Shown: positions 1 through 28,976 of the stretch, one piece after another
How the letters are laid out: the number at the start of each line of letters is the position of its first letter
Position numbering within the stretch: the first letter of the stretch is position 1
From: Antedon mediterranea
Lineage: Eukaryota > Animalia > Echinodermata
Assembly (NCBI RefSeq): GCF_964355755.1
Contig: NC_092674.1
Location: 30,380,001-30,444,000 of the forward strand
Length of the DNA stretch: 64,000 bases
Direction of reading: 5' to 3'
Translations under genes and position numbers: made by a program
The notes under the pieces: model-generated
The model's database searches: none
Told to the model about the DNA's origin: nothing
Seen by the model: the letters and a program-made list of their open reading frames with translations, nothing else

Positions 1-2
1 TT

Positions 3-161
3 ATCAGGAGAAATATAAAGTTCCTAAGGAAAACAAACGAAATATTCAGACAAAAAACACCAGAAATTGACTTTGATGAGCCAGAAGAACAACAATGCAT
101 CATAGACACAATGGAAACAGAGCTAACGAAACTGCAAGGACAAGATCAGGAAGAGCAGTAA
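3..161 (+). mobile_element. 3' end of an ORF entering from the left edge; possible Ty3/gypsy Pol (integrase C-terminus) remnant
   Basis: Frame 3 reads IRRNIKFLRKTNEIFRQKTPEIDFDEPEEQQ...EEQ*. IRRNxxxLR followed by an acidic tail resembles the RRNRRHLR motif at the end of K02A2.6-type gypsy Pol proteins. A purine tract (GGGGTAGGGATAA, ~457-469) followed by TGT could be a PPT/LTR start. Confidence 0.35.
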
Positions 162-1849
162 ACAAGCCACAATATTTAAAAGACTATGTCACATATGTGG
201 TATAACCCATGACATTGAACTAAAGACTATGATTGAGATTTATCACATAATGTACAGTGCATGAAACCAGTAAGGTTGCAATCAGAAAGACATTTAAACA
301 ACTAATTTCATTCTCTTTTCTTACAAACAAGTTTACTTATTCAGCTATCACTATCAGGCATTTAAGCAAAATACAATTATCAGATGTACGAGACACTTCA
401 TTAACACTACTGTTCATAATCCACAGGCTTAACGTTTTATGTTACAATATTTTGTTGGGGTAGGGATAATGTCAACAGCCCAGTAATTAAAACACTAACC
501 AATTTAATCTTGGTATCATTGTGTAGCATTATTTTATGTTTTGAAATCATATACAATAAATTCGGACAATTATTAAAGGTCAAAAGACATTGAACTTTTG
601 CACAAATGCACATTTTATCTCATAATATAGATACATTTCAATGTCACATCTCCAAATTTTGATATAAATTGATTTAAATAATAAATAAATAAATATATGA
701 TTTAAATTATGTTTTACTTATGTACCTACTAACATATGTAATAATAAAATGAAAATGAAAACAATTTACATCATGTACCATTACCACTTTTGTTTATTTA
801 TAAAATGTTAAATGTTATATTTCACCTAAGCAGGTAATACCTATATAATATTGCTGTTTTATTTGAACATAACTTAAGAAGCTCAGAAATATATCACAGA
901 GCCTTTTTGTTCAGTGTATTGATGAGCATCTTATGTTCATATAAAGTTTGCGATACACCATGTATTATTAGTTCTGAAAAGAACTGTTTTTCTACATTTC
1001 GATCAATATACTATGATCGAATGCAGAACGTCCAGGAAACTGGGAATATACATTGGTGAAATTGGGTGGGAGTATAAGCTTGAAAATGATGAGTCTGTCT
1101 GGTAACAAATGCAATTCACAAAGAAGGTGTGATGTTTAACTACTTTTTCTATTTGAATTGCAAATAGTGCGTTTAATAAATACTCAGAATAAATACTCAG
1201 TGTAAAACACTGTAACAACGCTATAATGGAAATTAAGCCAACAGTAAAGCTACCACTGGCTGGCATTATGCCAACACAACACAGTCAGATTCATTGATGA
1301 CTGGAGTGGAAAATTCCTTTTTAGCTAATAAACATTATTTAGCATGATATCAAATCAAATGCTGATTGGTTGATTCTATGTTATAAATTAATTACGAGGT
1401 AATAATCATGTGTTCCTTCAGTGTGCTCCACTAGATCATTTTAGAGTGACAGATTACAGCTGATCATTCACACCAAAACTCTGCTGAGATCTCCGGAGAC
1501 ACCCAGAGTTTGTGACCATTCAAAACGTCGAGAAACTCCAGAGATACCCCATTAACACCATCCTAGCAACACCAGTGTTTTTAAAAATAAAATTGTAAAT
1601 ACCACCCTCTATTTTTTTAATTTACATAGTGACGATCATTAGAGTCATTTTAATTGATAATATTTTTAATTTAATAATTATTTTCAAAAGTCTCAGAAGT
1701 TATATGTTTTATTTAAATACTATTTATTATTTTTTAGACCGCTATAGTATATATTTTTTACAAATTAAAGTATTTTGAAATAAAACTAAAGAAATGATTG
1801 ATCGTGTGAGGATGACCTTTTGACCTAAAAACTCTGGAGTTTGATGTTG

Positions 1850-2025
1850 GTACCTTTCACATCAAAACACCGGTGTATCTCCGCAGTTCGCCTTCCGGAG
1901 AACATTCAGCTGTTCAAACCCGCTGTTTTTAATTCTGGAGTTTTTTATTTTACCTTTAACACCAAAACATCGGGGCGTCAACTCCGGAGTGTCTCCAGAT
2001 TTTTTTCTTTTGTGTGAAAGGGGTA
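1850..2025. mobile_element. PIF/Harbinger-like MITE, family B (degenerate copy, inverted relative to 3004-3155)
   Basis: Ends are ACCTTTCACATCAAAA and TGTGTGAAAGGGGT. The internal GGGGCGTCAACTCCGGAGTGTCTCC matches the reverse complement of the 3004-3155 copy. A further relic lies at ~1465-1580. Confidence 0.65.
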
Positions 2026-2362
2026 TTGGTTTCACATATATGCTCAACGGTGAATGTGAACCTACCTATTAGCTCGAAAATAATCAATAATTTAATATCT
2101 GAGCAATAAATTTCATTAAGACATATTTTCAGACTAAACAAACTTTCTCAATGAACACATTTCTTTACATGTACAATGATGACATTCAAAATACATATTT
2201 CTCAAAAAACTGTAATAAACTGACAAATTTCTTAAAAATTAAAAAAATTTGAAATTATTTGTGTGTTTAAAATATTTGAATTATCAACATTAAAATAATC
2301 AAAGGCTAAATTACAACAATAATGAGATTATGTATTGTTTGAAGGTTTGCATGGCGAAATCA

Positions 2363-2540
2363 AATGTTGATATAAAGTTTATGGTACACCACGTGTATTA
2401 GTTATGAAAAGAACTGTTGAGTTTCTCGATGTTTCGATCAATGACGATCAAAGCATATTGATCGAAACGTCGAGAAACTCAACAGTTCTTTTCATAACTA
2501 ATACACGTGGTGTACCATAAACTTTACCGTATATCAACAA
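2363..2540. repeat. Near-perfect ~80-bp-arm palindrome, probably an inverted Penelope-like pLTR fragment
   Basis: AAGTTTTATGGTACACCACGTGTATTAGTTATGAAAAGAACTGTTGAGTTTCTCGATGTTTCGATCAAT is mirrored after a ~14-nt loop. A degenerate single arm lies at ~940-1030. Confidence 0.75.
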
Positions 2541-2736
2541 ATGAGATTATGCATAATCTTGGCACTTTGCCATAATAGGTGTAACAGTCACAAGACAATG
2601 AGACAATTGGGTGAATGGAGCGGAAATGTCCATTCATAACATTCTAGAATAGCAAATACTGCACAGTCAATGAAATTTGTTCACTGAGAAAGACATATTT
2701 TTCAACACAACAAAATTATCAGATAACAAGAACAAT

Positions 2737-4555
2737 ATGACAAGATGTAAAGGTAAGAATTAATTGTTATTATATTTAGTTTATTCGAAATATAATTTTC
2801 TTCTATATTCTAGATAAATTTATAAATTTAAATTGAAGAATTATATTAAGGTGAAGTTTCAACTTTAAAGTTATTAGTTTTGGATCTCTCACACACAAAC
2901 TTTATGCAATATAAGTTATGTTCAGACTGCCTTATGTCTGAGGTAAAGTTACGTCAGACATGCAACATTACTTTTGATGAGTGTCCACATGATGCTTAAT
3001 AATACCCCTTTCACACCAAAAGCAAAACTCCGGAGACACCCCGGAGTTGACGCCCCACTGTTTGGTGTGAAAGGTAAAATCAAGCAACTTTAAAACTGAG
3101 AGCGAACCGGAGAGCGAACTGCGGGGACACCCCGGTGTTTTGGTGTGAAAGGGGTATAATACAAGGAGCACATTGTCTGTAGTAAGGTTGAAGTAACTTA
3201 ATACAAACAAACCCTTCAGAGCTTACTGACTGATATTTTGTCAATAACTATAGTTTATTTATTTATATGTTTTGTTATTATCATGGATTTTTGAAACTAT
3301 ACTGCATTGCAACATAAATTGGTGTGTTTAAATATATACAAAATTTGTTTTAAAAAGAATGTATAAAAAGTGTGGTCTAGATAACTGTTTTGTTTTAGTA
3401 AATAAAACTGTATTTATTCAATGACATATAAATAGTAGTACAAAAGTATACAAACAATAAGACATAATAAAAACATTTCATTTAAGATAGATTGCAAATA
3501 ATATTACTTTTAGATAATAATAGTGTAAATAAAAACAAAAACAATCTTTATACAGCATAAAAATCAGGTACTATGAACTACCATATTGCAATAAACGTTT
3601 CAAATTGTGAAAAATATTTGTTCAGTGGGGAATATCTTTACATTATTTTGCAGAAATATTGCTTGGAAGTCTAATATGCGTTGGCCTACTTATGCTTACA
3701 TCAAAAGACCAAGTGGATGCCAAACAGATTTTAGATGTTCCAAAAGGCGATTCAATTACCTTACCGGCCTTATTAGAAAACGCAAATATAAATGGAGTAT
3801 GGCAATTGAATGGTCAGAACGTAACATGTGACCCAAACATGCTGGTAACTTACGACAGAGTACTTAGTAAATCCGAGCTATACATAGAACATGGTGAATA
3901 CAATCATAGCGGCCAGTACAGCTTCATTGTAAATGGTGACATCTATAAAAGTTATAGAGTAAACATCATTGGACAAATAACTAAAAAGCCCGAATTAGAA
4001 GTGCGAGAAATAAGTAGTAATGAGGTGATTTGGCAATGCATTACGGACAACGTACATCCACATCCAAATTTCTACATAGATGAAGAGCCAGTACAAATCT
4101 TGTTCATAAATGACACCAACATTTGGGTTGAACACACCACAACAGTTAAAAAAAGTGTCACTTGCTGTGTGCAATTGGAGCGTAACTACAAAGAATGTTC
4201 AACGAAAGGCTTTAAAAAACCGGAAATGACCTCAACCATCGATCACAGAGACAGTGACCTCTTGACAAACCTGAAGAGCCCTACTACTACTGATCAGAAT
4301 ACTGCAACGACTAGACCGTTCTGGACAAACCCACTCACAGATTACAAAGATACCACTACTCAAGCCTTGATAGTTATTTTGATAGTCCTGGTTTCACTAA
4401 TACTAATATTAATTATAATGCTTTTTCAAAAAGTAAACAATTACTTTAAAACCAAAATGTATGACAAAGTACCAACTTATGAAACAGTGGCAATCGAAAT
4501 GACAACTATCCCAAACCCTGAACCTGATGTAACTAGTGTGACATTAAGGGAGTAA
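2737..4555 (+). CDS. Ig-superfamily type I membrane receptor, copy 1 (exons 2737-2752 and 3654-4555), antisense within a WDR19 intron
   Basis: ATG ACA AGA TGT AAA G|gtaag joins cag|AA ATA TTG in frame, giving the signal peptide MTRCKEILLGSLICVGLLMLTS. D1 has G-x-S-I-T-L, W-x-x-N-G, L-x-I and H-S-G-x-Y. D2 has W-Q-C, H-P-x-P and V-T-C. A Thr-rich stalk, TM ALIVILIVLVSLILILIIMLF and tail with YDKV and YETV follow. AATAAA at ~4566. Confidence 0.85.
3004..3155. mobile_element. PIF/Harbinger-like MITE, family B, in the intron of Ig gene copy 1
   Basis: Perfect TIR ACCCCTTTCACACCAAAA...TTTTGGTGTGAAAGGGGT; not seen in the paralogous intron of copy 2. Confidence 0.75.
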
Positions 4556-5559
4556 ACAAATTAAGAATAAATTGTTTTAACACTCAAAACTATTTCAACT
4601 CATAAAAATGTGTAAAAAATCTCTTAAGGAAACCGTTACTTCTTTCTATAGCTTCTGTTACTGTGACCCATGAAACAAGGAGAAAAAATTAGTCTAAACA
4701 GATATTGTGGAAAATTATCATGTTACTTGATACTGTACTTATGAATACGTATGTAAAAGAAAAAAAGTTTATATCTATCCATTTACTTAACTTGTTAATT
4801 GAAAAAGTGTTTTTTTTTTAACTGTAATTGGTGAAAGCCTATCTTAGTTATGTTTATTTTAAAATTAATTTAAATACATTTAGTAGTAAAATAGATAATA
4901 TAGAATGTTCTGTATAAAGAATGTTATAATATAGAGTGTTATTCAATAACAAATAATATAAAACTAGGTACCATTATATTCAAATATTGAACAAGTGTTT
5001 TTTACAACAATATATTACATAACTAAGTATGTACATTAGGTAACATTTTAATTTTAGATATTTAATATAGGTAGTAACTACTAAGTATTTCTTACAGATA
5101 TTTACATATGTACACACATGTAAACATGTAAACTAATATTTAAGTAATAAATTAGGAGATAGGATGCTTCTCAATAACAAAAAATATATGGTAACAAACA
5201 ACATTATATTTTAATATTGAAAAAGTATTTCTTATGTGTATATTAATGTAAGTTAAGCATGAACATTAGGTTAACTAATATTTATTTTATATTTAATAAG
5301 ATAGGGTGCTTGTCAATAAGAAAAAAATATTATATAGGGACATTATAAAGCTAATATTTAATAATCTATTCTTAGGAAAGAAAATGTATTTAATAATATT
5401 GTAGAAGTGTCATATTTAAATAAATATTTATTTTGTACATTAAGGTAACTATTCTTCAGGAAAATTGTTCTTAAATCTAATATATTATTTGTTTTAAGTA
5501 TACAGTATCTTATAATTAAGGAAATAAAATGTTTTATTGATTTTATTATTATTAAGAGA

Positions 5560-5675
5560 ATATTGTATTTTAATTGTATGTTCTAGCACAGAATATTGTA
5601 TTTTAATTGTATGGTCTAGAACAGAATATTGTATGGTCTAGCACAGAATATTGTATGGTGTAGTGCAGAATATTT
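5560..5675. repeat. Short tandem repeat (TTGTATGGTCTAGCACAGAATA-like) downstream of Ig copy 1; paralog at 11435-11590
   Basis: About four imperfect units of 22-33 bp; the same array occurs at the equivalent position after copy 2. Confidence 0.8.
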
Positions 5676-6624
5676 CATTGATAATATATTAATAAACACT
5701 AGAATTACAAATTCAAATTGTTCAGTTATTTTTGTCAGGGCTTTTGACTTTGAAGTTTGAATGTTATTATGTTGCGACCCTTTATAAGGTTTGTTCTAGC
5801 ATACTCTATGTCAATATGTAGTCAATGGGTTGAATATTGTTGAACGGGTTCAATATTGTGGAACAGGTTAAACAGAATGAATAGCCACGTTCACATAAGA
5901 TTTTATCATGCTTTCGTATCCTGATATTGAATATCACGTTAACAGGAAAAGCGTTCACATAGAATTCAACATCGTGATAAGTATGCTAATGAGGTGCACT
6001 GCACTATTTTTGTTTCTACGGAGCGCCAAAAGAGCAACGATAATAAAGGACTAAAACTCAGAGGAATGCGTCAATTTCTCATGCATTTATTGGTGAAAAA
6101 CACGTTTAATTTCAATATATTTGTTAATTTGTCAATACAAATGCTGTAATATGTTACTGCTCTGTTTTCAAAGAATAATAATCGATCCTAAATCAGCATC
6201 ACTACCTAGCCTAGACCTACAGTAGGAATCCTACTAAGGATATTATGATGAATTGTTCTATTTTATTCTTTAAAAGGTTAACGAAACCGTGTACAGTATC
6301 AACAGTAACATTTTTCGTTAAGCTCTGTCTACACTATAAAACTTTATGTTACAAAAAATGTGATATGCCCATATAATATGGACATGATGTTGTCATGTCA
6401 GTACCATATTTGGGTATACCAACGTGATTGGTTGAAACTGCGTCACATGACTACAGCTGCGAGGATCGTAAATCGTATATATCCTCGAGAACGATGATAT
6501 TGACTGAGTAATTTTCACGTAATTATCGTGTCCCCTGTCATTAATCATATAAATTCTCGAGTTCGATGATATTGACTGTGTAATTTTCGTGTGCAACACT
6601 CGCGTTTGCCGATAAATAAACAAA

Positions 6625-6705
6625 AGTCATCTACTGGATCTTGAACTCGGGATGGAATTGTCACTCCATCATAAGACAACGCTTCAACCGCTGCGCCACG
6701 GAACT
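6625..6705 (-). mobile_element. tRNA-derived SINE head
   Basis: The reverse strand reads CGTGGCGCAGCGGTT (box A) ... GAGTTCAAGATCC (box B-like); no complete cloverleaf. Confidence 0.45.
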
Positions 6706-7131
6706 TGCTTGAAGAAATTAATCTTTTAAACTATTTAAGCTATGCATACATAGCGCCCTCATTTGTTATTAGTCCTCCCTAAATGTGATGAAACACCGTT
6801 TGTGATTGGTCAATACTCACGGTAGTAACCTAGTACGCGCTGAACATCCAGCGATTCGGCTCCTCGAAGAGAAGAAGACGAATTGTTTATTCGGTCTACC
6901 TGATTATAATATTATTATTAATAGGCCTATTGATGGAAATTCTTCTGTTAATTTAAACGACCTAGGCCTAAGTGAATATTTTATTGCCAAGGAATCATTA
7001 ATTAGTAATTATCTGTATATTATTCTTCGCAAGGTAAGGTGTCTAGGCAGGCTTGTTTACATACAATACAAATACTATAGGAGGCCTAGCCTAGCTTCAC
7101 CCAACCCAGCAGACTTGTTCTTGGCTATATA

Positions 7132-7328
7132 ATATAACAGATATCGTCTTCTATATCGGTAAAATATAAGATTTGACATCCCCTCCGGATGATATTATGT
7201 TCTCGGGGAATTATATATATCCCTCAGCTGCCGCTTCGGGATATGTATATTCCCTCGAACATAATATCATTCCCTCGGGGATGTCAAATCTTATATTTCA
7301 CCTCTAAGCAGGCAATATCTGTATAATA
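7132..7328. mobile_element. Foldback/hairpin MITE
   Basis: AAATATAAGATTTGACATCCCC...GGGGATGTCAAATCTTATATTT, with further paired internal segments; a fragment of one arm occurs at ~815-850. Confidence 0.7.
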
Positions 7329-7419
7329 TCACTACTAGCTAGCTGTACACAGGGCATAGTTGTTTGCTTGACTTAACAGGGTATTTCCCTACTACTACAC
7401 AGCAAGCTATGGTAACTAG

Positions 7420-8170
7420 TTTGGCACTCTGCCAAATTCAACATCAGTGACAGAATCCCCAAAGAATGGAAAATTCCATTGAAAAATCATTCTAGTCAAC
7501 AATTCGAGAATATTTGATGAATTGAAACTGCGCAATGAATTTCTATCCATTGATAGAACATTCTAGTCAACAATTTGAGAATATTCAATGAATTAAAACT
7601 GCGCAATGAATTTCATTGTAATGAAGATGTAGCTTGGTGGTTAACATGCTTGCTTTTTCCACCCAAAGTCCAGAGTTCAATGATCCTGACCTGGTGTCAT
7701 GGCTGTAACTCCCTAAACCTCAAATAAAACTTTATTATAAATTATAAAATAGCTACAGTAATCCATCCTCTAATTGGTGACTTGCTTGCTGTTGGATATT
7801 TAAGAAATGTTGAAAAAATAACTAAATAACAATTGTTTTGAAGACGTAATAATAAAACAAAAATCAGAAAATTGAAATAATTTGTTATGAATTTTAAATT
7901 AAAATTTATAATTTTTCAGACTAAAATATAAAAAATGAGAAACATTAGTATTATTAGTATTATTGAATATTAATAATAAAAATACAAACTCAGATGACAT
8001 TTTGAGTTTATCTACATAGCAATAATAAGCTAACAACAAACTTGACACTCTGCCAAAACACTCACGAGATATCTATGAATGGAGAGTGGAAAGTTCCATT
8101 GATAGAACATTCTAGCCAATGAACGAGAATATTCGATGAATTAAAACTACGCAATGGAATTCATTGTAAT
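7420..8170 (+). promoter_or_regulatory. Repeated upstream module of Ig copy 2 with kappaB-like, HSE-like and C/EBP-like motifs
   Basis: GGAAAATTCC 7468-7477, GGAAAGTTCC 8088-8097, GAACATTC 8105-8112, GAATATTC 8127-8134, and CGCAAT motifs. Homologous modules occur at ~1255-1325 (GGAAAATTCC 1308-1317) and ~2560-2680 (GGAAATGTCC 2622-2631, TTCTAGAA 2642-2649). Confidence 0.5.
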
Positions 8171-8233
8171 AAAGTGTGTTCATGGAGACAAACGTATATT
8201 TCAACACCTTTATCAGATGATAACAAGAACAAT

Positions 8234-10223
8234 ATGACAAGATATAAAGGTAATAATTATTTTTGTCATAGAAAGTTGAACTCAAATGTAATTTTCTTCT
8301 ATATTCTCAATAAATTTATAAATTTTAATTGAAGAATTGAAGATATACAGTAGTTTATATTTTATTTATTATTTATATTATTATATTACATTAGTGTTAT
8401 TATAGTATACGGCACAACTATATTGTATACTGCAGTGCAACATAAATTGGTTTTTGACTAATAAAGTAATATAATAGTAAAATATACAAAATTTGTTTGA
8501 AAAATGCATGTTTATACGGTCCATGACGGCTTGTGAATAGTGCATAAAACTGCATTGCCTTCAATGACAAATAAATATCAATAAAAAAATAGATTAAAAA
8601 AAGTAAACAATACATAATAACCTTTCATATAACGCTTTCAACATGTAGCATTAGTCCCACTTATGTGCTCAATATTTGTGTGCGAAAAAAAATGTGATTT
8701 TAATAAATTGAATTTATAAATTTTTTTTTGGTGTGTGGTGGGTCTACGGTTGGGAGTGAAAAAAAAGCTAAAATGCATATTAATGACGTCATGTGACCAT
8801 TACAGCTATTTTGGAATTCCTGTTTTTGTCAATTCAATGATAAAAACTATTTTTCTATAAGAAATTCTTATGGAATATGGGTTTCCCTCTGGATATATAA
8901 AAAAAAATTATTTTTATATAATAAAAAATTACGCATAAATCAAAGTTTTGGGTCAAAATCTTAGAATGACATTTTCCAAAAAAAAAATGGGTCACAGCAA
9001 AATTATTACTTCAGATTTTTTGTTTGCGTATTACAATGAACATAATATTGCTCTATTGGGGTGGTAACATTTGGTAACTGGGGGATGTTTTTGCACCATT
9101 ATAGATAATGATACAACTTTCCAAGGTGATAAATAATAGTTTTTCCCATACCTGATAATACCGGGTATGCAGTTCAATGATATTTGTTGATACCCGGTAG
9201 TACCGGTTATACAGCATAAAAGTCAAGTACAGTAATTAACTACCGTATTATGTCACCAATAAGCGTTCAATATTTAAAAAATTATTTTTTCAGTGGGGAC
9301 AATATATCTTCTTTTTTTCAGCAATATTGGTTCTGACTCTAATATGCATTGGCCTACTGATGCTTACATCAAAAGACCAAGTGGATGCCAAAAAGATTTT
9401 AGATGTCCCAAAAGGCGATTCAATTACCTTATCAGCCATATTAGAAAACGCAAATATAAATGGAGTATGGCAATTGAATGGTCAGAACGTGACATGTGAC
9501 CCAAACATCATAGTAACTTACGACAGAGTACTTAGTAAATCCGAGCTATACATAGAACATGGTGAATACAATCATAGCGGCCAGTACAGCTTCATTGTAA
9601 ATGGTGACATCTATAAAAGTTATACAGTAAACATCATTGGACAAATAACTAAAAAGCCCGAATTAGAAGTGCAAAAAATAAGTAGTAATGAGGTGATTTG
9701 GCAATGCATTACGGACAATGTAAATCCACGTCCAAATTTCTACATAGATAAAGAGTCAGTAAAAAACGTAACCATGAATAACACCAAAATTTGGGTTGAA
9801 CACACCACAACAGTTAAAAAAAGTGTCACTTGCTGTGTGGAGTTGGAGCGGAACTACAAAGAATGTTCAACGAAAAGCTTTGAAAAACCGGAAATGACCC
9901 CAACTATCGATCACAGAGAGAGTGACCTCTTGACAAACCTGAAGAGCCCTACTACTACTGATCAGAATACTGCAACGACTAGACCGTTCTGGACAAACCC
10001 ACTCACAGATTACAAAGATACCACTACTCAAGCCTTGATAGTTATTTTGATAGTCCTGGTTTCACTAATACTAATATTAATTATAATGCTTTTTCAAAAA
10101 GTAAACAATTACTTTAAAACCAAAATGTATGACAAAGTACCAACTTATGAAACAGTGGCAATCGAAATGACGACTATCCCAAACCCTGAACCTGATGTAA
10201 CTAGTGTGACATTAAGGGAGTAA
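8234..10223 (+). CDS. Ig-superfamily type I membrane receptor, copy 2 (exons 8234-8249 and 9322-10223), antisense within a WDR19 intron
   Basis: ATG ACA AGA TAT AAA G|gtaat joins cag|CA ATA TTG, giving MTRYKAILVLTLICIGLLMLTS. Architecture matches copy 1 and the last ~100 aa are identical. Confidence 0.85.
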
Positions 10224-10872
10224 ACAAATTAAGAATAAATTGTTTTAACACTCAAAACTATTTCAACTCATAAAAATGTGTAAAAAATCTTTTAAGGAAA
10301 CCCTTACTTCTTTCTATAGCTTCTGTTACTGTGACCCATGAAACAAGGAGAAAAAATTAGTCTAAACAGATACTGTGGAAAATTATCATGTTTCTTGATA
10401 CTGTACTTATGAATACTATGTAAAAGAAAACAAAAAGTTTATATCTATCAATTTACTTCATTTGTTAATTGTTTTGTAACTGCAATTGATGAAAGCCTAT
10501 CTTATTATGCCTATATTATAATGTTTGTTAAACTCAATTTGAATACATTTAGTAGTAAAGTAGATAATATAGAATGTTCTGTATCAAGAATGTTATAATA
10601 TAGAGTGTTATTCAATAACAAATAATATAAAACTAGGTACCATTATATTCAAATATTGAACAAGTGTTTTTTACAACAATGTATTTATATAACTATGTAC
10701 ATTAGGTAACATATTTCATTTTAGATATTTAATATAGGTACTAACATCTAAGTATTTCTTACAGAAATAATTTATGTTTATGGCATTTACACACATTTAA
10801 ACATGTAAACTAATATTTATTTTAAGTAATAATTAAAAGAGATATAATGCTTCTCAATAACAAATAATATAA

Positions 10873-11017
10873 AGCCTTGTCTACACTATCAAACTTTATG
10901 TGTCAAAAAAATGTGGTGTGTACAAATATGGATATGATGATATTTAAGCAAAGCACTACCATATATGGCCACATCAAACTTTTTTGACAAATAAAGTTTG
11001 ATAGTGTAGACAAGGCT
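10873..11017. mobile_element. PIF/Harbinger (Tourist-like) MITE, family A
   Basis: TIR AGCCTTGTCTACACTATCAAAC...GTTTGATAGTGTAGACAAGGCT, flanked by a TAA direct repeat; the paralogous site near 5190 is empty. Confidence 0.85.
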
Positions 11018-11887
11018 TAATGTAACAAACAACATTATATTTTAATTAATATAAGAAATGTGTATATTAATGTAATTGTAAGTTAAACATGCACATTAGG
11101 GTAACTAATATTTTTTTTAATATAAATAAGATAGGGTGTTTGTCAATAAGAAAAAATATTTAACTAAGTACGTACATTAAAAAATATTTATTATATTTTA
11201 ATGTTGAAAAGTGTTTCTTGTATATAACAAAGTGAAACATGAAATAACTATTTATTTTAGAAATATTTAATATAAAACTAGGCATGGTACTATTAAGTAT
11301 TATTAACAACATTAAAATATTAATAAATAAATTAGGTACTTATTTAATAATCTATTCTTAGGGAAGAAAATGTATTTAATAATATTGTAGAAGTGTCATT
11401 TTTAAGAAAAATATTTATATAAGTATATGTATATGAATACTGTATTGTAATTGTATGGTCTAGCACAGAATACTGTATTGTAATTGTATGGTCTAGCACA
11501 GAATACTGTATTGTAATTGTATGGTCTAGCACAGAATATTGTATTGTATGGTGTAGCACAGAATATTGTATGGTGTAGCGCAGACTATTTCATTGATAAT
11601 ATTAACACTAGAATTACAAATCCAAAATTGTTCAGTTATTTTTGTCAGGGCTTTTGACTTTGAAGTTTGAATGTCATGTTGCGACCCTTTATAAGGTTTG
11701 TTCTAGCAAACTCTGTGTCAATATGTAGTCAATGAGTTAATTATTGTGGAACAGGTTAAACAGAATTAATGTGTTACAAATTATCCATGGATAACTGTAA
11801 TAAGCCATGTGCATGTCAACATACAGTAAAACAATATAACTGATCATCGGAGAATAAATCATAAAAATATGGAATTTTAAAACTTAC

Positions 11888-14800
11888 CGGGTTATAAACA
11901 AATCCATCACTTTTGTCATCAATGAAAACAAGTCTGGTTCCACTAGGATCTGGGAAAAGACTACGGATGCCAACAACATGTCGGAACTCATTCACATACT
12001 GCCAGTCCTCAATGAAGAAGTAGTAAAGCTCACCAGTCTAAAGAAAGAAGTTTAGTTTTAATCATAAGACTAAAGAGCAATAATGAGATATAACATGTAG
12101 TCCAACTTTTATTTATGTTCGCAACAATTTTGCTAACGCTGATACTGTATACACATTTTGAGTTTACCTAAAAAGTGGAGATTTACACAATAATGGCATG
12201 TACATGTGGGAAAATAAGATAAAGTTAATTTTTAAATTGGATCATGAAAAATTAACTCTGTTAAAGATTCTTGATGTCTTTTATATATTTAGGCAAATTA
12301 CCAAGAATAACCACAAGCGAATTCATTCACTATCCTTCTTAAAGGTGGCAATCCTGTTCACAAGAAAAGCATATACACAAGATGCTCTACATAAACAAAG
12401 TCTTTGTCTGAGTTTTACAAATATATAAAAATACATCATAAAAAATGTTTAACAATATAAAAGGTCAACAATTTACAAAGCAAGAAGAGAATGCCCCAAA
12501 ACAGGAGTAAAAAATTAAAATCAAACATATTGCAAATCATCAATTACGTTAAAATTTTTGTTAAAAAAAAAAATAAAAATTATTAACACCTACAATTAAA
12601 TAATTTGTACTACTGTCTGTCTGAGCCAAGAAGCTTGTAATATGACACTGATATATTAAGCAAAATTGGAATTTTAGAATAACATAAAATGTACGTACAT
12701 CAGTGCCAAATATGAGGAACTCTGGAGTGAGACAATGGCAGAGAACCTTGCCATCATTGTCCTTGCCTGGAAACAGTCTTGTCTCACGCTCTTCACTTGT
12801 GCTTCCACTTTCTGTTTCAATCTGAAATTAAACCATAACATAAAGCAATGTAATCACATTCAACAGTGAAGAAATAATGTACTTTTAAAAATGGTTTTAG
12901 GCATGACAAAAATCTTAACCCAACCAGAATTACCTTACCTTATTCGTTCGTAATAATAAATAAATCTTTTGGTCACAGATTTTTATTTCATCTACAGTTT
13001 CCTTTGATTTATTTCAAAGTATTTCTGGTATTATTAATAAATCATTTAATAATCACAATTAAAAACAATTGGCCTTCAAAAAATTATGAGGTTGTGTCCC
13101 CTAATACCCTTGATAAAAGCTAGTGCCACCTCAAATAAAAATATTGTCTCACCAGATGCAACTGGACTTGGTTTTCAAATGCCACTGCTACGTAATCAGC
13201 GTTCAATGACATACTGACTATGGTTCCAAGATACTCACGGTCCTTCAGTTTCTCAGGCCCTGCAATTAAAGTAGTTTGTCATATAATTTGCAATTGTGAT
13301 ATTCATATTTGAACACAAAACATAATCCTCTACATAAAGTAAATTTTATAGACTTAGGGAGTCGAGTGAAAATCATAAACCTAACTCAAAAAGGAACTGA
13401 ATGGCTTGGAAGGCAAGTGCCTTTTAAGCTAAAGTTACTTATTATTTTTATTTATTTTCAGTTACATTCAACACCAGGAAACCCGCTACTAAATTTAATA
13501 TTATGTGAATATATTTATAATTATAAAAAAAATCTGTTATTAATAATTAGACATAAAAAAAGATATTAATTATGATTTGAAAATGAATAAACTCTTGACA
13601 TTAAAAACAATAAAATATAAAACTATTTTAACTAAAAATATATTTTATTGAAAACCATTTTTAAAAATCATGAAAATATTTATGTTAATTTTAAATTCTT
13701 TGAATTTATTAGTAACAAAATTAAATGAATGAACATAAAACAAGACTTCTTATTGTTAATGTTTTTTAATGAATACAGAAAAAATTTGAAAAAATGAAAA
13801 TCAAAGTATTAAACTTTTAACAAATATCCAAATCAATGAAATAACTGTATAACACAGATTGTCTTGCAAGGTCACTCACAGAACTGGACAAACAACTGAA
13901 AAAGAGACCCTGTGTCTGCTTCCTCTAAAGTAAGATGATTAAAAAGTTTGTTTATAATATTTTTAAGTAGGAAAAAGGAAAGTATTGCTCATTCAAATAA
14001 AGACCACTATAATGTTATTAATAACATTGGCATCACTGATGAAGACAAATGTAGTCACAGTCAGTTGACTGAGTTTTTTTTTTTTTACTTTATGTCTTTA
14101 GGCATGTGGCCAAGGATTACCAATAGTAAATTAATCACTGTCCTATCAGATAGGTTGTAATCCCCCTGGTACAAGGGCTATTTTTGTGAACCAGTTCACC
14201 GGGGTACCCCCTACACTTCTCGAATAATGAACTGGGTTCTTTAAAGTGCACACAGGTTATAACTGTACTGGACCTTCGGTTTATAGTCCTTATCCGAGAA
14301 GACTTGTTCCACCACCAAAACTAGGAGTGAGTCGGCCTCGAACGCTTTCCAATGTTGTTGGCTCTTTAGGTGCGGTAAACAACGCCTCTGCCTTAACCGC
14401 TCGGCCATTTGACTCGACCTAACTAGATCAGGTCAATTGATGTGTTATCAGTTGTCGTCTAGACCTACTGTAGAAACAATCACAACTGTGTGGAGGTGGG
14501 GAGCGAGGACACGCGTCCTAATATCCTCACATGCGCAGAAAGAATTGATATGACGCACCTTGATCATCAATCATAACTGTGTGGAGGTGAGGAGTGAGGA
14601 CATGCGTCCTAATATCCTCACCTGTGCAGAAAGAATTGATATGACGCACCTTGATCATCAATCACAACTGTGTGGAGGTGAGGAGTGAGGACATGCGTCC
14701 TAATATCCTCACATGCACAGAAAGAATTGATAACGACGCACCTTCATCATCAATCACAACTGTGTGGAGGTGAGGAGTGAGGACATGCGTCCTAATATCC

Positions 14801-17800
14801 TCACATGCGCAGAAAGAATTGATACGACGCACCTTGATCATTGGTTGTCATATTTTAAAAGCTCAATACTGTATACTACTGTAATCACATACTGGAAATG
14901 TTGAATAACAAATGGTAATAATGTTTACATAATGATTGCCATGGAAATTGTTATGAATATTATGACAATGCAGATAAAAAGCAAATACCAATCTATGATA
15001 CTTCAATTACATCATAATTTTAAACTATTATTTTGTTCAACCACTTATTAAATGAATACCTACATATGATCTTTACCAATAATAATATATAAACTTTGTA
15101 ATAATTCTAGACTTTAATTCATTGTGATGAGGACATAGACTGGTAAATTGCTGTTAATGTTGTTAATGCAATTTCTCCCAGTACAATCCTACCCCTCATT
15201 TTTATTAACAAAATGTTATACCATGAGACTATTGTACATACAGTACAGTATTAAAAGAAATCACACTTATCCTATAAAAAATGAAATGGATAGATTATAT
15301 ACACGTGAAATTTGACAGCAAGGTGCAGTACAACAAATAACACTTGTGGTCAATAGGATGGTGATATTGGTTGAAGGTTAATTAAAATATGTGATATATA
15401 GGAAAACATGAAGGCAGATGTTAGGTACAGTTGGTTGACTTATGCATTTTCAGTAGAAACCCTTCTTTGAGACACACCTACACCTCCCCCCCCCCACAAG
15501 ATGTGGGGGGGGGGGGGGGGTGTTACTATATTTTATCACACTACAGACAACCCATATTTAGAGAACATTCTTATTAAGAGGGACACTTTTGTTAGGTGCT
15601 GAAGTGTCACCTTAATTAGGAATCTACTTTTTAAGCAGTAATGACACTCAATAATGGTATATCTGAAATCTTTTATTAAAGCACATGGTTCCTTTGATAG
15701 TGGTATGGCTCCACTTGTCTTATTTGCATCCTGTATAAAATGTTATTATAATTAAATGCAATGTTAACAATATTGTCATGAAAGTGTGTGTATTGATATT
15801 AAAAATCACACACGTGAAAAGGCACTTGATTCCAAACAAAAAACTTACATGTTGAAGAGTCCTCATATTCATCTAAAACGAACACAAAATTATGATGTAT
15901 TACACATTTTGTAATGGGTAAAATCTCAATCATTGAACCACTTTATATGTTGGTATATTGAAGATGGGCCACTAAACTTTAAGACTATGTAAAAATAAAG
16001 TCACATGGTAAACTGAAATAAAAAGACTTAAAGTAGATTATTCCTACCTTTTGTCCCAAGTACATAGAACCAGGCTCTGTTGTTCATGCCAACTACAAGA
16101 TGATACGGACCAAGGGCAACAAATGTTGGTTCGACCTCTATGCTGATCGGGAAAGCTGGTTCCTGAAAAAGTATGAAGATGTAGTTATACAGTGCACAGA
16201 TGAGCGACAAAATGCCAACAAAGTTTTCTTATAATAACGTTTGACAGGTGTTCTAAAAGTGTTCCGTCTTCCGTGAAAATAAAGGATATCTTAAATACAA
16301 AATGGTTCCTTTAAGTCTGTTTTCCATTAGTGAATATATTTGCGCGAATCAAACATTCCTGATTTATGATTGGTTGCGCATTTTTCCACGTCACAAAAAG
16401 TAGATGAAAATATCAATACGCAATAAATTCGGCTAGTGGAAAACAAGCTTTGAATAATAATAATGTTCAATTTATATAGCGCGAAATGCAGAGTGCCTCT
16501 AAGCACAGAACATTCAACAAAAAATCTAAACAGCACACAATTAATTAATGTTGAAAGCGCAAATTAAAAATGTGGGATTTAACATAACTTCAATTAAAAC
16601 AAACAATAAATGCTAAATTGTCTATAGTACAGATAATAAACAAGAACATTGCGGTAGGATTTACAAGATATCTTGTCTATAATACAGATAATAAACAAGA
16701 ACATTGCGGTAGGACTGGTCTAACTGACAAAAAAATATCATTTTAAAACTTTATTTATTCTTATTCTTTACCTGGTCAACATGGTTGACAACAGTGACTT
16801 CTAGTAATGATGTGAGGTAAGCAATACGGGTTCCCCATGCATCTCCCAACACCGGTAACTTTGTAAGATATACATGGACACTGCCTCTAGTGGAGCTGAC
16901 CGCTAGCAATTGTCCATCATCAGTCCAGGCCATCTTACCCAAGCCTTTAGTCTCATCTTCCAACTCAACAATAGCATACATTTCTTTCAGCTCACTTAAG
17001 TCATGGATTTTAATGCTGTAAGATCATCATATTATTTAAACATTGTACATACACACTTATATGATTTTGATGATGAGTAAACATATTCGTAAGACGACGT
17101 TTGTTTGAATGCTGACAGTAAGCTTTTTAAGTCGTTTTGTAACTGTGAAGCTAGATGTAACTGCTAACATGTTTTACAACTTGTTTATATGATAAAAATA
17201 TATTTTTGCAACTCTCTCTCTCAAATCAATGACAAGTATAAATTCTATAAATAAACCAAAAAGATGAACTCTTCACTTACGTGTTATCTCCACATGATGC
17301 GGCTTTGTTAAGTGACAACGAGATGGCGATTGACGTTAAATTGTTTTTGTGGTTACGAGCTTGGAACAACTCTTGTCCGATCTCACTTATATGTGTTGAG
17401 ATCACAACCAGGTAGCCATTGGAAAATCCTATCATAATGTAACCATCACCATACCTATAGTGAAGAAACAAATTGTTTTTATTTAAAATTTTCCTATTGT
17501 CCAGCGCTTAGAGAGGCATTTTGAGCTATATAAATTGAACATCATTATTATATTTACATGTATTAAATTCCAATTTTATGACTATAACAAAAAATCCTTT
17601 CAAGACACAATAATAATTAATTGAACACACATTTATTGGCAGCATTGGCTTGCCATACATGTTCTTACCATTTATATCCAACAACATTGCCATAACGAGG
17701 CTGAAACGCAAGCTCAATCGGGTTATCAGAGTCATTTAGGTTGTACAGGAATATGGTTTTATGACCACAACATATGCTTACCTATGCAAAGAAATATACA

Positions 17801-21063: not shown

Positions 21064-22699
21064 CTTTACAAAACCTAGAATTCATTTAATTTTCCAGGTT
21101 TTTGCAATTGTTTTTCGTCGTGGTTTTTGTTTTGTCGTCTGATAATTTGTTTATTGAGTAGCTATGTTAATATGGCACGCACAAAGCGCAAAAATCACAC
21201 ATCCATATATACGGCGCGCCTCCTATAATCTGGGTCTATGCACTTTTTAGAAGACATTTAAAGAAGATATCCAAATCCTAAAAGAAAGCCTTATTTTAAA
21301 ATGGTGCTGGAATTTAGCTCAAATTAAATAAAAGAGAAATTATTGGTCCTTTGGGAACATCTAAATTACGCGCTTGCTCTTTGATTAATTTGGCCTATAA
21401 AGTAAGCTACGGTCTTATATCAGACAATACCTGATTCAGTGTTCTAGTTTGATCATCATCCCCATATAGTTGTCGTCTGTATTCGTGACGTCGTCGAGTG
21501 TTCATCACTGCTTCCACATGTTTACTCCTGGAAGGTTCGCGTTCAGAATTGCCAGTTTGCGTTATATTAGCCATGGTAAACTAATTCGTCAATAATCCAT
21601 GATTTTAATGGCTATATATATTTACTAGTAATGCGGTCAACCAACATCATCATATTATTATCTTATGCATCAATCGCCATAAATGATAATAATGCAGCAC
21701 TTGACCTCCCGTTTGAACTTAGTGAAATGTGTAAGCAAGTTTCAGTATATTATTTTTGAACAAAGAAATTAATCAGTCTTCACTATAAGGCCTACTATTA
21801 ATAATGCGCTGAGATGAGAGATGCTTATGATGATATCAAAAGGACTTTGTACGACGCTAAAAGAGAAATGCTCTTTAACGATCAACGTCAAATCCCAACA
21901 GTCAAAAATCAAAATATGTCGATAACTTCTTTAGATCATTCATCAATAAACCTGCCTATTTGTTCGTCATCGTCTCTCTAATTTTCAACGCACGAGAATC
22001 ATCGTTGAGTGCAAAATGGCAGCAAATGCAAGATCATCAGCAGAAACACGCACACACACGTCACGCGCACACGTCACATACACGACGACACAAGTTAATA
22101 ACTGCAATTTGCCTGATTTCGTTTGTATTGCTCATAATATCGAGTTGGTAAATGGTTGACGTTTAAGTAATATTAATATTCTTAAGTACACGTTCATTAC
22201 GGACAACATAATCAATAGCGTTATTCATTTCCTACACTGATTGACTTGTCCTCACTTTATGCAAATCAATACTTCATTGTAACTTACAAGAATACGGTTT
22301 ATTCTACCACAATTGAAACACTCGTTTTGAAAACAACAAATTGTGTATCATGCAAAATTGCCATTACTAATTACAAAACGAGGTGATCCAAATTCGGTTG
22401 CATAGCAACACAATGCCTTGGGTAATTATAGTGGAGAATACAATATTGTTATTATAGTATGAGCAACCATGAATTTATGACAATTATTACCTTGAAACGG
22501 TCTGTTCAACACGGATGCTATTTTTTGATACAGACCTATTTAGGAAAAAAAGAAAAACAAAGTGATGGATCAACATAATTTATAGGAGGCAATTATATCT
22601 TGTCATGGTTGAAAAGTGCATAGGCCTATACAATAAGGCTATCCCTTTATATTTTGATTTTAGGGCTTATAAAATAAATCTACGTTTTGCAATATTTAA

Positions 22700-24412: not shown

Positions 24413-27400
24413 ATGGCGATGACCGGTGTGTTTTCCTTGTTTTTACGAACATGTCCTGCACCAGTAACTTTATTTCCACTTACAAAAGCTTATATTATAC
24501 GAAAATACTGCACATCAAAAAGTGTATCAGATGTTTTAAAATTGGATATTCTACAGACGACGGGAAATATTATTACGAACCCGGTAACTTAGTTTTGTTG
24601 TTAGCCCCCACGTCCACAACATGCATGCTAGTGAATTAGAGAATAGGCTGACTCACTCACACTCACAGCCTTATATGCCCCGTGGAAATTGACCTAGCTT
24701 GCCAGGCCTACTTAGCTGGGACTGTAAGAGATTAACGACTCAACCACATGACCTCTTTTATTTATTTATTATTATAGACTACTTTCTTTATATTTCTCTA
24801 TGTTTAAAATAATTTATAATAATATACAATTTTCCCAATTTTGTTTCTGTATGTTTTTTTAGGGATGGGTACAAGCTATTCGTTCACATAAAGGAATATG
24901 TTTTCTTGATATCAATGATGGTTCATGTATTGACTCCCTTCAAGTGGTAGCAAAGTCAGATGCTATGCCAGAGTAAGTCGGAATTATTATTTCGATTAAA
25001 AAAAAAAAAATAGCGTAGAGTAGAATTCAGGATTGTTTAAACGGGAGAGCGCTAATATAATAAATTTTATTAATATTATTATTTATATATATATTAGTAA
25101 AATAATCATAGTTTGTCAAAAATATATATCAAAAAGTGGTTAATATTAATTTAATTTTAGCTATCAAGCAGGGAGCATGCATTTTTTTTTATTGCTTTAT
25201 TAAACAATGAAAAAAAAACAACTTTAAATTATTATTTTTTTCCAATTATGAAGTGAAATAACAATTGGATGTTCAGTACAGATAGAAGGATCGTTGGTAC
25301 GAAGCAAATCCCCAGGCCAGTCCTCAGAACTCAAGGCAGATATTGTCAAAGTCATTGGAGAGTGCAATCCACAGGTAAATGTTACCTCTCATTTAGATTC
25401 ATTAGATAAATGGTCACAAAACCGAGTCCACATTTCTATGACATTATTAACTATAACACAAAACAAGATAATGTAACTCTATATGCACCACTCCACACAC
25501 ATGACAGTATGCATACAAATTGCAATGAGCTAGAGCCAGAGTGGAGAAATAGCCTTCAACAATGAAGTTTGCTCTAAGAGTACAGCAACACTCATTGGGC
25601 CTGCAGTGTCTTGCTGGTATAGTAGGCTGCTACTCTGGGCCTGCAGTGTCTTGCTGGTATAGTAGGCTGCTACTCTTTCACTTCAGTATACCATCATAAC
25701 TAATTTTTTTCTAATAACTATTTTACAATAACAATATTCTATTTTCGTTGTCACACAGGAGTATCCGTTCAAACCAAAGGCACGGTATCATGCAGACTTT
25801 TTGCGACAGCTTCCTCATCTACGATCAAGAAACAATATTTTTAGTTCATTGTTAAGAATTCGGAATGCGGCAACAATTGCGACTCATAAGTTTTTCCAAG
25901 ATAGAGACTTCCTGAATGTACACACCCCGATTATCACGTCCAATGACTGCGAGGGCGCTGGAGAACTGTTTGCTGTTAAGGTTTGCGCTGTTCTTATATG
26001 TACAAAGCACTTTCATGGAATGTTATTTTTATTTTGTGCATGCAAAAAAAAATTACATTAAGACAGATTTTAAAACTCAAATTCTATGTGCTGCACAAGT
26101 CATAATATATATCTCGGTATCTTTATTTTTAAAAACATGACAATTCACTGAGGCAAATAAAAATCTGTAGCAGCCAAACATTTTTTAATAATTTCATACA
26201 AAAAAAATATATAAAAAAAAACCCAAAAAACAAAAGAGAAGCAGCAAAATTGAAAATGTTCGTAATAAAAATAATATAGGAATAATAATAGTTTCAACAT
26301 GTTGTATAATGTATTTTTTCAGTCTGCAAATACAAAAGTAGAGGATGTCAATTTTTTCAATGTTCCTGCATATCTAACTGTTTCTGGTCAGTTACATTTG
26401 GAATGCATGGCATGGTAAGACTTTAGAAATAATTTCTTAAGCTCTGTCTACACTATCAAACTTTATGTGATGTGCCCATATATGGACATGGTGATTTCAT
26501 ATCACTACCATATTTGAACATCACTACCATATTTGGGCACATCACACTTTATTAGTCCAACTTGTTGATAGTGTAGACAGAGTTTAGATAGTCTCACTCC
26601 ACTCCTGCTGTGTAAATAGATATCTTAAAATGTCTTGTCTGATTTTCATAAATTTGTTTGGCCCATGGGACTGTGTGGGGTAGTACACTATCTTTTGTGT
26701 TCTGTCTATTTAATAATATATTTCTTTATTATATAAGTTCTCATAGCAAAGTGTACACAATAGGGCCAACGTTCAGGGCTGAGAACTCGAAAAGTCGTAA
26801 GCATTTATCAGAATTCTACATGGTTGAAGCGGAGATTATTAATACAAAAACAATAGAAGATTTAACACAAGTAAGAATAATGTTAATGAAGATATCAAAT
26901 AATTGTTTTACGGTCATGGACTAACAGACAAACAGACAAAATTACATATTTCCTTTTCACAATCCATTCTCCACTAATTTATTATATCCATAACGCATTT
27001 TAAGTAAAGTGAAAAAAAAAAACTGAATATAAACATTGTGTAAGTTTTTGTACTAAAATTAATTTACATTACTGTATATTTAGTTGATTGAAGATTTTGT
27101 AAAAGAAACAACACAGCATGTTCTTGAGGAAAGATCAGAAGACGTTTGTTTATTTCACAAGCAAGTAGCGCCAGGTCACAGGGTACAGTATACTGTATAA
27201 TTATTAAAATGCCTTATTTAATATTTCATATGAATGTTACTTGTGATTGAATAATCATAATATAGATCATGTTATATAACACTTAAATAAATTCCTGTCA
27301 TTTGATTGGACGATTGTGGGTCACATGGCATGCAATAGTATGATGATGATATTAAACTTTTTGTTTGGTTCTTTTCTTACAGGAAATCATTGATAAAATG

Positions 27401-28976
27401 CTGAAATGTAATTTTAATATGTAAGTACTGTATTTTAATAATAATAATGGTAGTCATATATAGCGCCTAATACAATATTTCTAAGCATTTTTCACACTAA
27501 AACGATCCATAAAATATCCTAACCAAAAAAGTTAGAAAAGCAGAGGAACCATTTACACCGCTCCTTCTCCAGCACTTTGAAGCTCCCACGTGAAACTAAG
27601 CGATCAACATACTTGCACATTTTAAGACAACAACATTTATTTTAATTTGCTACATATTTAGTATATCATACACAGAAGCAATTGCACTCTTGGAGAAGAA
27701 CTCAGACAAATTCATCAATAAACCATTTGTAAGTAAAAATTTGTTTTTTGAAAAAAATAGAAATGTAAATCAAGAGTGTAGAGTAGAGTTGTAGCTTAGT
27801 GGTTGATATGCTTGACTACCGATTCAAGGATCCTGTGTTCAAATCCTGTCAGATGCCAGGATTTTTCTTCTCATGACAGGAACAACTTCATTACCACAGA
27901 CTTGTTTAAGACTTTGTTTATGGAGAGAGTCTTGTGTATATGTTTGTCTTTTGCCACCTTTGAGGAGGATAGTGAATTAATTTGCTTCCTTCGCAATTTG
28001 CCATAATATATTAAAACAATCTGTACTTCTTTTCATTTTTAGTGGGGCTGTGATTTGAATACGGAACATGAGGTGTTTTTGGTGCATTATTTTGATGATA
28101 CACCAACATTTGTAGTAAACTTTCCAAGCGAAATAAAAGCATTCTATGCAAGAGAGAATGACGACAGTCCACAGACGGTAAGGCTTTCTCTTTACTCCTC
28201 CTTTACATTTAGAATACAGTATTTGTCTAAAATTCACAATAGCGCAGTTTAACTTTTAAATAATATACTATAGTTTTATGTATAGGTCTTACAATGATGA
28301 AGGTGTTGCCCGAAAGTTCTGCTAATTTTTCTGGCTGTTTTACTTTATCGTTTTGATTTAGCTTTTCGGTTTTTTTTGTATCTCCATTGAGATCCAGCCA
28401 CTGATACCCACAGCATTGTCATTTTTTCAGTAATTTTCCTTTGGATTTATATATATATATATATATGTTTTATATTTTATGTATCCCTTTAATTTTTCAT
28501 TCATGTTTAAAACTTTGTAAATCTTGTCTGTGTATTGTGATTTTAAAGTTTTATTGTAAGTTTTTAAATATGTTTTTATGAATGTTTTTAATCTATTGCT
28601 CTAAACAGGACTAACAGGTGCAATATATGGTATGCTCTTTAATCCTGTATGAATAAGTTAAAAAAAATCTCATACTTACTCTTTGAAGTACGACTGTTTC
28701 CAACAGGTATCAGCAGTTGATTTACTGGTTCCTGGTATTGGAGAGCTAGTTGGTGGAAGTCTCCGAGAAGAAAGAACAACTGTTTTAGAAGAAAAACTTA
28801 AAAATAATGGTTTATTAGATGTGTACGATTGGTACGTAGATCTACGAAGGTTTGGTTCGGTACCACATGGGGGTTTTGGATTAGGGTTTGAGCGGTATCT
28901 ACAGTTTTTGTTGGGGGTAGAAAATATAAAAGATGTTATACCATTTCCACGGTTTACTCATTCCTGTAGATTATAA
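24413..28976 (+). CDS. NARS2: Mitochondrial asparaginyl-tRNA synthetase (multi-exon)
   Basis: Exon 1 (from ATG 24413) encodes an acidic-poor, targeting-like peptide. Later exons read [10 protein letters not shown]...[66 protein letters not shown], and [12 protein letters not shown]...[12 protein letters not shown]...DVIPFPR. Confidence 0.95.
26440..26584. mobile_element. Family A MITE
   Basis: AGCTCTGTCTACACTATCAAAC...GATAGTGTAGACAGAG. Confidence 0.8.
27785..27925 (+). mobile_element. tRNA-derived SINE (second family)
   Basis: Box A TAGCTTAGTGG and box B GTTCAAATCC; a related degenerate head lies at ~7628-7700. Confidence 0.5.

Follow-up and report, generated by a model that had tools for sequence, protein, structure and literature searches.

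Among the membrane proteins to which the genes described here can be compared, those of the B7 family carry an immunoglobulin (Ig) V domain with the canonical disulfide, followed by an IgC domain. SLAM ectodomains (PMC11012012) start with a domain that has no disulfides; the C2 domain after it is truncated and contains two, and one of the receptors is held by a glycosylphosphatidylinositol (GPI) anchor. The Alr proteins of Hydractinia (bioRxiv 10.1101/2022.03.04.482883) have a V-set first domain (D1) with a C'' strand, I-set D2 and D3 domains, an Fn3-like domain, six invariant cysteines and, in part of the family, immunoreceptor tyrosine-based activation or inhibitory motifs (ITAM, ITIM), and occupy 41 loci. 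Here we analyze a tandem pair of genes for Ig-type membrane proteins in the crinoid Antedon mediterranea, located in a 64,000-nucleotide stretch of contig NC_092674.1 (assembly GCF_964355755.1, positions 30,380,001 to 30,444,000, forward strand; hereafter the window, with positions counted from its first letter). The pair are genuine intact genes, antisense to and nested inside an intron of the cilia gene WDR19, and they resemble CD2/SLAM receptors in layout without belonging to that family, to B7 or to Alr. We propose, with an even chance of being right, that they encode type I surface recognition or adhesion receptors with a phosphotyrosine tail.

Each copy consists of a leader exon with 16 coding nucleotides and one large exon, with a GT donor, an AG acceptor and a phase-1 intron, and yields an open frame of 918 nucleotides encoding 305 amino acids (aa); the earlier note on this DNA, correct in describing two intact two-exon genes nested antisense in a WDR19 intron, gave 304. 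The exons and the surrounding part of WDR19 are the following.

2737..2752, plus strand: copy 1 leader exon, coding part (5 codons and 1 nucleotide, then the phase-1 intron); GT donor at 2753, product identical to XP_071951671.1
3654..4555, plus strand: copy 1 large exon (remaining signal peptide, D1, D2, stalk, membrane segment, tail, stop); from the spliced frame and RefSeq identity
8234..8249, plus strand: copy 2 leader exon, coding part; GT donor at 8250, product identical to XP_071951670.1
9322..10223, plus strand: copy 2 large exon (D1 9390-9638, D2 9639-9881, membrane segment 10035-10094, tail 10095-10220); from the spliced frame and RefSeq identity
11888..12037, minus strand: last WDR19 exon in the window, ending at residue 543 of 1345, donor at 11887; from mapping of the WDR19 model
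1..11887, minus strand: part of the WDR19 intron that hosts both Ig genes and runs off the window; no WDR19 exon recognized there

Both spliced products agree letter for letter with the RefSeq entries named above (P0002 for copy 1 and P0001 for copy 2 in our searches), which are uncharacterized proteins of A. mediterranea and form a single two-member cluster in the protein database search. The expectation that these genes would be easily missed by annotation was thus mistaken: the pair is already annotated, if uncharacterized. Given that RefSeq calls a 16-nucleotide coding exon here with no homolog to guide it, the model itself may point to underlying RNA support.

The WDR19 model in RefSeq (XP_071951647.1, 1345 aa) places residues 1-543 on 11 exons of the minus strand, from 20758 to 11888. 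To the left of position 11887 no further WDR19 exon was found, as had been stated before: 6-mers of the missing 802 residues occur in 0 of the 6 frames of 1-11886, and the best match of 82 WDR19 proteins to the same segment is no better than E 0.033. The hosting intron is therefore at least 11.9 kb long, compared with about 0.17-2.8 kb for the 10 other WDR19 introns measured in the window. The range of 0.1-3 kb previously given for the other introns of the window agrees with these 10, the measurement covering introns of WDR19.

Several observations concern the same host gene. A segment at 21431-21568 (minus strand), upstream of where the Antedon RefSeq model begins, shows a 64% match to residues 4-49 of an Anneissia WDR19 isoform and is a possible alternative first exon. 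At 3-161 (plus strand) a frame is open at the window start and stops at 159-161; its 53 aa, basic at first and acidic further on, resemble the tail of a receptor or the end of a protein, and a contig of one sequencing run (X5, see below) lies at 108-303. Possibly the frame marks where a third gene of the plus strand ends in the same WDR19 intron; it has no match to the Ig pair. In the region 11467-11887, unit 2 of the duplication ends about 130 bp from the WDR19 donor.

The two proteins share one layout, namely a putative signal peptide (residues 1-28), D1 (29-111), D2 (112-192), a stalk (193-243), a membrane segment (244-263) and a 42-aa tail. The signal peptide is predicted from hydropathy and pattern (a hydrophobic N-terminus and a V-x-A cleavage pattern); the stalk, 51 aa long, is rich in serine and threonine (31-33%) and free of cysteines, the membrane segment is single and uncharged, and three to four N-glycosylation sequons are present. 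The main parts of copy 1 are encoded as follows.

3722..3970, plus strand: copy 1 D1 (aa 29-111), an I-set Ig domain without the B and F strand cysteines; Trp55 and Tyr94 retained, one free cysteine (Cys64)
3971..4213, plus strand: copy 1 D2 (aa 112-192), a probable truncated C2-like Ig domain with Cys134, 176, 177 and 187 (low confidence)
4367..4552, plus strand: copy 1 membrane segment (aa 244-263), followed by the 42-aa tail that carries YDKV and YETV; from motif and hydropathy analysis

A profile of three sequences matches the I-set domains of titin and MyBP-C (best single-domain E 0.00094), and W55, G92 and Y94 are invariant in 7 of 7 alignment rows. The structure model was built on these 7 rows, four of which are known I-set domains covering D1 only (a single-sequence model with a predicted local distance difference test score, pLDDT, of 44 was discarded); it reaches a pLDDT of about 90 in D1, where the strands assigned by DSSP form an A', B, C, C', D, E, F, G beta-sandwich with no C'' strand and the C-strand tryptophan and tyrosine corner of an I-set domain are present. 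The closest folds are MyBP-C C2, OBSL1 and titin (Z 13.3-12.7, best root mean square deviation 1.5 over 81 residues), and V domains align lower, at Z about 12 (TREM2, Z 12.1). D1, which the earlier note had taken to be V-like, is thus confirmed as a short I-set Ig domain of 83 aa without canonical cysteines, similar to those of titin and MyBP-C, and not a V domain.

D2 is probably a truncated C2-like Ig domain. Conserved in 3 of 3 rows are Cys134, a PxP motif and an F-strand cysteine 42 residues on (Cys176/177). By Atlas features, used as a lead only, 9 of the 10 rows listed belong to Ig families (C2-set clusters, score 0.88-0.89), and the best Foldseek rows are two-Ig proteins over about 185 columns; the rows of the wide fold search do not cover D2 and so exclude nothing for it. 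Of the layout that had been read from the sequence, the topology motifs, the stalk, the tail and the Ig fold of D1 stand, and D2 is an Ig domain with probability only (pLDDT about 50). The fold search that had been proposed for both domains likewise identified D1 as Ig (Z 13.3) and left the poorly modelled D2 as a probable case.

In the tails of both copies there are two YxxV motifs, Y275DKV and Y281ETV, two residues apart. At least two YxxV motifs arise in 3% of 20,000 tail shuffles, and the YDxV pattern, to which YDKV conforms, in 1.7% of them. Both motifs also fit YxxPhi, a pattern of sorting signals, which occurs at least twice in 15% of the shuffles. The earlier suggestion of an immunoreceptor-type tail has to be abandoned, since the tail contains no ITAM, no ITIM ([IVLS]xYxx[LV], the definition being that of the Alr study, bioRxiv 10.1101/2022.03.04.482883) and no immunoreceptor tyrosine-based switch motif (ITSM) of the form TxYxx[VI], given as TxYxxV/I/L/T in PMC11012012; at the position two residues ahead of the tyrosine, Y269 has N, Y275 has K and Y281 has P. 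In nephrin, phosphorylated YDxV binds Nck (PMC12159891).

The protein database search that returned the two-member cluster and the profile search covered proteins of 138-534 residues, and family size was judged from protein databases. In a library of 1.84 billion representatives the search returned 9 hits, namely copy 2, a protein of the crinoid Anneissia japonica (P0009, XP_033105357.1, uncharacterized LOC117107723), four multi-I-set proteins that match D1 and three unnamed repeat proteins. The last three, which have no Ig families, were taken as spurious. A profile search gave 2 proteins and nothing new. The Anneissia protein is the sole full-ectodomain relative found in the databases searched (28% identity over 185 residues; E 1e-11 pairwise and 3.9e-5 in the library search), and in it Pfam detects an I-set domain above the cut-off (E 5e-9). 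It has a signal peptide, an I-set D1 without cysteines and a homologous D2 as in the Antedon pair. It differs in its length of 251 aa, its short stalk, a hydrophobic C-terminus with no tail, which looks GPI-like, and only two cysteines in D2. No further copy or pseudogene of the family was found in the window, and neither the 57 pattern matches in viral contigs nor the 595 in metagenome contigs contained a confirmed relative. Relatives over the full ectodomain are thus restricted to crinoids in the databases searched, in agreement with the narrow distribution, with no one-to-one ortholog among known genes, that had been anticipated. The literature, subscription papers and supplements being outside the scope so that absence from print is not established, yielded no description of this family or of genes nested in WDR19, and the accessible part of PMC11999971 contains nothing on crinoids.

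The copies differ at 30 of 305 residues, and the differences are distributed unevenly. The ratio of nonsynonymous to synonymous substitution rates (dN/dS) between them is 0.75 overall, 0.46 in D1, 0.95 in D2 and 0 in the membrane segment and tail; a significant excess of replacements, as a sign of positive selection, is seen in none of the domains. Over codons 206-305 there is no nonsynonymous change and a single base differs. Two features of copy 1 delimit this pattern.

4082..4120, plus strand: D2 patch (aa 149-161), in which 9 of 13 residues changed between the copies (permutation p 0.0001)
4253..4704, plus strand: near-identical tract (stalk end, membrane segment, tail, start of the 3' flank) with 3 differences in 452 bp against copy 2; likely gene conversion

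The D2 patch arises partly from multi-base changes. Before 4253 there are 42 differences over 599 bp and from there on 3 over 452 bp (p 8e-8), and synonymous sites show the drop too (p about 0.03-0.05). The 5' portion of exon 2 is 7% different, and the introns, with local blocks of 70-79%, align at an identity of 0.56 against 0.53-0.54 in 5 shuffles. Nearly unalignable introns and a changed D2 patch stand beside an almost identical membrane and tail part, which suggests gene conversion. The copies are old paralogs, and the sequences fit a tandem duplication of some age after which the 3' part was converted. Between the duplicated units, at 5880-7400, lies a high-copy repeat block with very deep cover in all runs and a palindromic element at 7129-7329. 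Palindromic elements resembling miniature inverted-repeat transposable elements are also present at 2365-2539 and 10869-11021, the latter of a family found at about ten places in the window.

Upstream of the coding parts, both units carry two modules, one distal and one proximal, in which TGGC-N5-GCCA is followed 45-62 bp later by GGAAANNTCC.

1261..1317, plus strand: distal module of unit 1, TGGC-N5-GCCA palindrome and GGAAAATTCC, from pattern counts
2560..2631, plus strand: proximal module of copy 1; its Rel-like site lies 115 bp ahead of the ATG, from pattern counts
7422..7477, plus strand: distal module of unit 2, perfect TTGGC(N5)GCCAA, from pattern counts
8043..8097, plus strand: proximal module of copy 2, whose palindrome has one mismatch; its Rel-like site lies 146 bp ahead of the ATG, from pattern counts

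All three exact TGGC-N5-GCCA matches of the window are upstream of these genes (0.15 expected), and four of the seven matches to GGAAANNTCC in the window fall in these modules (1.27 expected). We take the latter pattern to resemble NF-kB or NFAT sites. TTGGC(n5)GCCAA is the consensus site of NFI (PMC12630593). Because the modules persist while the spacers between them have diverged, the sequence suggests that they could be working promoters. Rfam gave 0 matches on 1-12000. Short tandem fragments of the copy 2 promoter region, with 81-90% identity to 8083-8174, lie at 7463-7626.

Sequencing runs were compared as contigs, which give neither strand nor level, over positions 1-8340, with the large exon and the splice junction of copy 2 outside that range. 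None of the runs is recorded as RNA; X5 is RNA by guess and comes from another sample, X1 is possibly the source of the assembly, and X6 comes from another organism. X5 has contigs on exon 2 and its 3' flank, and within 3845-4050 they carry the copy 2 letter at all 3 sites that tell the copies apart. Over exon 2 and the 3' flank the ratio of X5 to X1 depth is 0.20-0.29 in 7 of 8 bins and 0.06 in the remaining one, compared with 0-0.04 in 6 flank bins of low repeat content. X5 covers intronic sequence too and has no cover in 8063-8340. These contigs are a weak hint that the pair is transcribed. One X5 contig, at 5414-5882, extends 267 letters unlike copy 1; the 3' end of copy 2 might reach toward the WDR19 exon.

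The proposal that the pair are surface receptors takes as shown the gene structure and nesting, the D1 fold, the topology motifs, the restriction of full-ectodomain relatives to crinoids in the databases searched, the concentration of divergence in the ectodomain and the nearly unchanged membrane and tail part. The signal peptide would be cleaved after A28, and the stalk would keep a glycosylated two-domain head off the membrane, where it might bind a partner that sits on another cell or belongs to the matrix. Upon clustering, a Src-type kinase could phosphorylate YDKV and YETV, and YDxV could recruit a Nck-type SH2 adaptor and, through it, actin; alternatively, the motifs may serve as YxxPhi sorting signals. 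The old tandem duplication would have produced two binding specificities that share one signalling tail, whose likeness gene conversion and purifying selection would maintain, and NFI together with a Rel-family factor (NF-kB or NFAT) might drive transcription independently of WDR19.

A number of observations weigh against this reading. For both proteins Pfam reports no Ig family, with only weak membrane-segment matches and none at the cut-off, and a single-sequence search of the PDB with them gave 0 matches. The four seeded I-set rows lean the D1 model toward I-set. In the D2 model six strands form at a pLDDT of about 50 and the G strand does not, the D2 profile has 2 chance matches in the PDB (E 0.8-1.2) and no Ig family in Pfam, and the Foldseek matches have a root mean square deviation of about 10-12 over both domains. 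The identical tail may reflect conversion, not constraint. YDxV was noticed post hoc, is single (nephrin has three) and is missing from the tail-less Anneissia relative. The four upstream modules are homologous copies and not independent, their Rel-like pattern was fitted by eye, and strict GGGRNWYYCC occurs in none of them. Splice joints of either gene are absent among the 15 joints listed (336 more are unlisted).

From its sequence, an immune role of the pair is possible. A specific version of it, an expanding cluster of immune or self/non-self receptors of CD2/SLAM or Hydractinia Alr type, with a homophilic Ig head on immune cells, seems to us rather doubtful. Such a cluster would account for the parallels with SLAM (D1 without the canonical pair, a short D2 with four cysteines, a tail-less relative with a hydrophobic C-terminus) as well as for the fast divergence (28% identity to Anneissia), the dN/dS of 0.95 and the 9/13 patch in D2 and the Rel-like upstream sites. 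However, D1 is an I-set domain without C'', the tail has no ITSM, ITIM or ITAM, and the Fn3-like domain described for most Alr proteins in that preprint is lacking. With two Antedon copies and one Anneissia relative in the protein databases, the expansion that the earlier note had envisaged is unproven. Furthermore, dN/dS above 1 is significant in no domain, the changes cluster in the membrane-proximal D2 whereas D1, the usual binding domain, stands at 0.46, and the multi-base changes of the D2 patch may be one mutational event. We consider it unlikely that the pair serve in adhesion during development, in the nervous system or between gametes and have no immune role, in which case the tyrosine motifs would be only YxxPhi sorting signals and the divergence a relaxation of constraint after duplication. 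IgLON adhesion proteins are among the best Foldseek rows, both motifs fit YxxPhi, of which two or more arise in 15% of shuffled tails, the overall ratio of 0.75 fits relaxation and NFI sites are not immune-specific. Yet the frames have stayed intact while the introns drifted near the shuffle level, which implies long-acting constraint, the tail is unchanged, and fold matches at 11-15% identity are uninformative on function.

Two further explanations concern the origin of the copies. It is very improbable that they are haplotypes of one gene assembled in tandem, a case that the earlier note had raised itself. The single base difference over codons 206-305 would be expected then, and the summed X1 depth, 450-650 over exon 2, does not clearly reach double that of the flanking bins (355-676, inflated by repeats) and so does not decide; the divergence of the introns and of the 5' part of exon 2 fits haplotypes poorly. 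In X1, moreover, exact contigs of each copy's own flanks have depths of 270-325 and the contig of the shared part 504, with the reservation that X1 may be the assembly's source, and X6, from another organism, has two different overlapping exon 2 contigs with 6 and 14 other letters. A gene from a virus or mobile element retained by the host is similarly remote. Usual Ig genes have one domain per exon, whereas here one exon holds both domains, the membrane segment and the tail, so that the ectodomain is intronless, in addition to the intron-nested position, and viral two-Ig proteins match by fold. These matches are generic, at 8-22% identity, no confirmed relative occurs in viral or metagenome contigs, a relative exists in another crinoid family, and retroposition or intron loss would explain the structure equally well.

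A broader extension of the receptor proposal can also be envisaged, which we regard as a long shot: that crinoids evolved a CD2/SLAM-like receptor system independently of vertebrates, with heads composed of a disulfide-less I-set and a truncated C2 domain, signalling and GPI-type forms, diversifying ectodomains, a tyrosine tail kept by conversion, NFI/NF-kB-type switching, a role in self/non-self or pathogen recognition and further members farther along that intron of WDR19. Almost nothing has been described on Ig-type surface receptors of crinoids, the sister group of all other echinoderms. In an animal in which regeneration is studied, this small two-Ig family, which evolves fast and combines a variable head with a fixed tail and a conserved upstream module, offers a concrete candidate for cell recognition. 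However, Ig membrane proteins confined to one lineage are common, and so are genes nested in introns.

Elsewhere in the window, the open reading frames include exons at 25732-28976 (plus strand) that presumably belong to an asparaginyl-tRNA synthetase gene and others at 31719-37483 (minus strand) that we take to resemble a transglutaminase gene. Tandem repeats with units of about 91 bp and about 70 bp are present at 14477-14841 and 47314-48215, respectively.

Compared with the known systems, the Antedon pair is closest in layout to CD2/SLAM, with which it shares a first domain without disulfides (Cys64 is the only cysteine of D1), a probably truncated D2 with extra cysteines, a tyrosine tail and a tail-less relative. 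With respect to the two-disulfide feature, D2 has four cysteines in both copies and two in the Anneissia relative. Unlike CD2/SLAM, the pair has an I-set D1 of about 83 aa that is not V-like, no ITSM and a single-exon ectodomain, and no sequence link to that family was found. The resemblance to CD2/SLAM, B7 and Alr asserted by the earlier note thus survives as an analogy in CD2/SLAM layout and not as membership, there being no V-like D1, no ITSM and no Fn3-like domain. From B7 the pair differs in a D1 without the B and F cysteines and without the C'' strand. Like the Hydractinia Alr proteins, the pair consists of type I Ig proteins, clustered and confined to one lineage, which Pfam does not detect and in which the canonical cysteines are lacking; in contrast to Alr, it has no V-set D1, Fn3-like domain, six invariant cysteines or ITAM/ITIM, and a cysteine-less 51-aa stalk follows D2. 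Further traits of the known families are, in CD2/SLAM, binding to itself or within the family through D1 and expression in blood cells, and, in Alr, extreme allelic polymorphism with homophilic binding specific to the allele. The I-set domains of titin, MyBP-C and obscurin-like proteins resemble D1 in fold and in the missing canonical disulfide, but they belong to intracellular multi-domain proteins, with 12-22% identity over one domain and no shared function implied. The nephrin ectodomain is far larger than that of the pair, and nephrin has three YDxV motifs against one here; what the two have in common, with no homology claimed, is an Ig-superfamily membrane protein with a YDxV motif in its tail.

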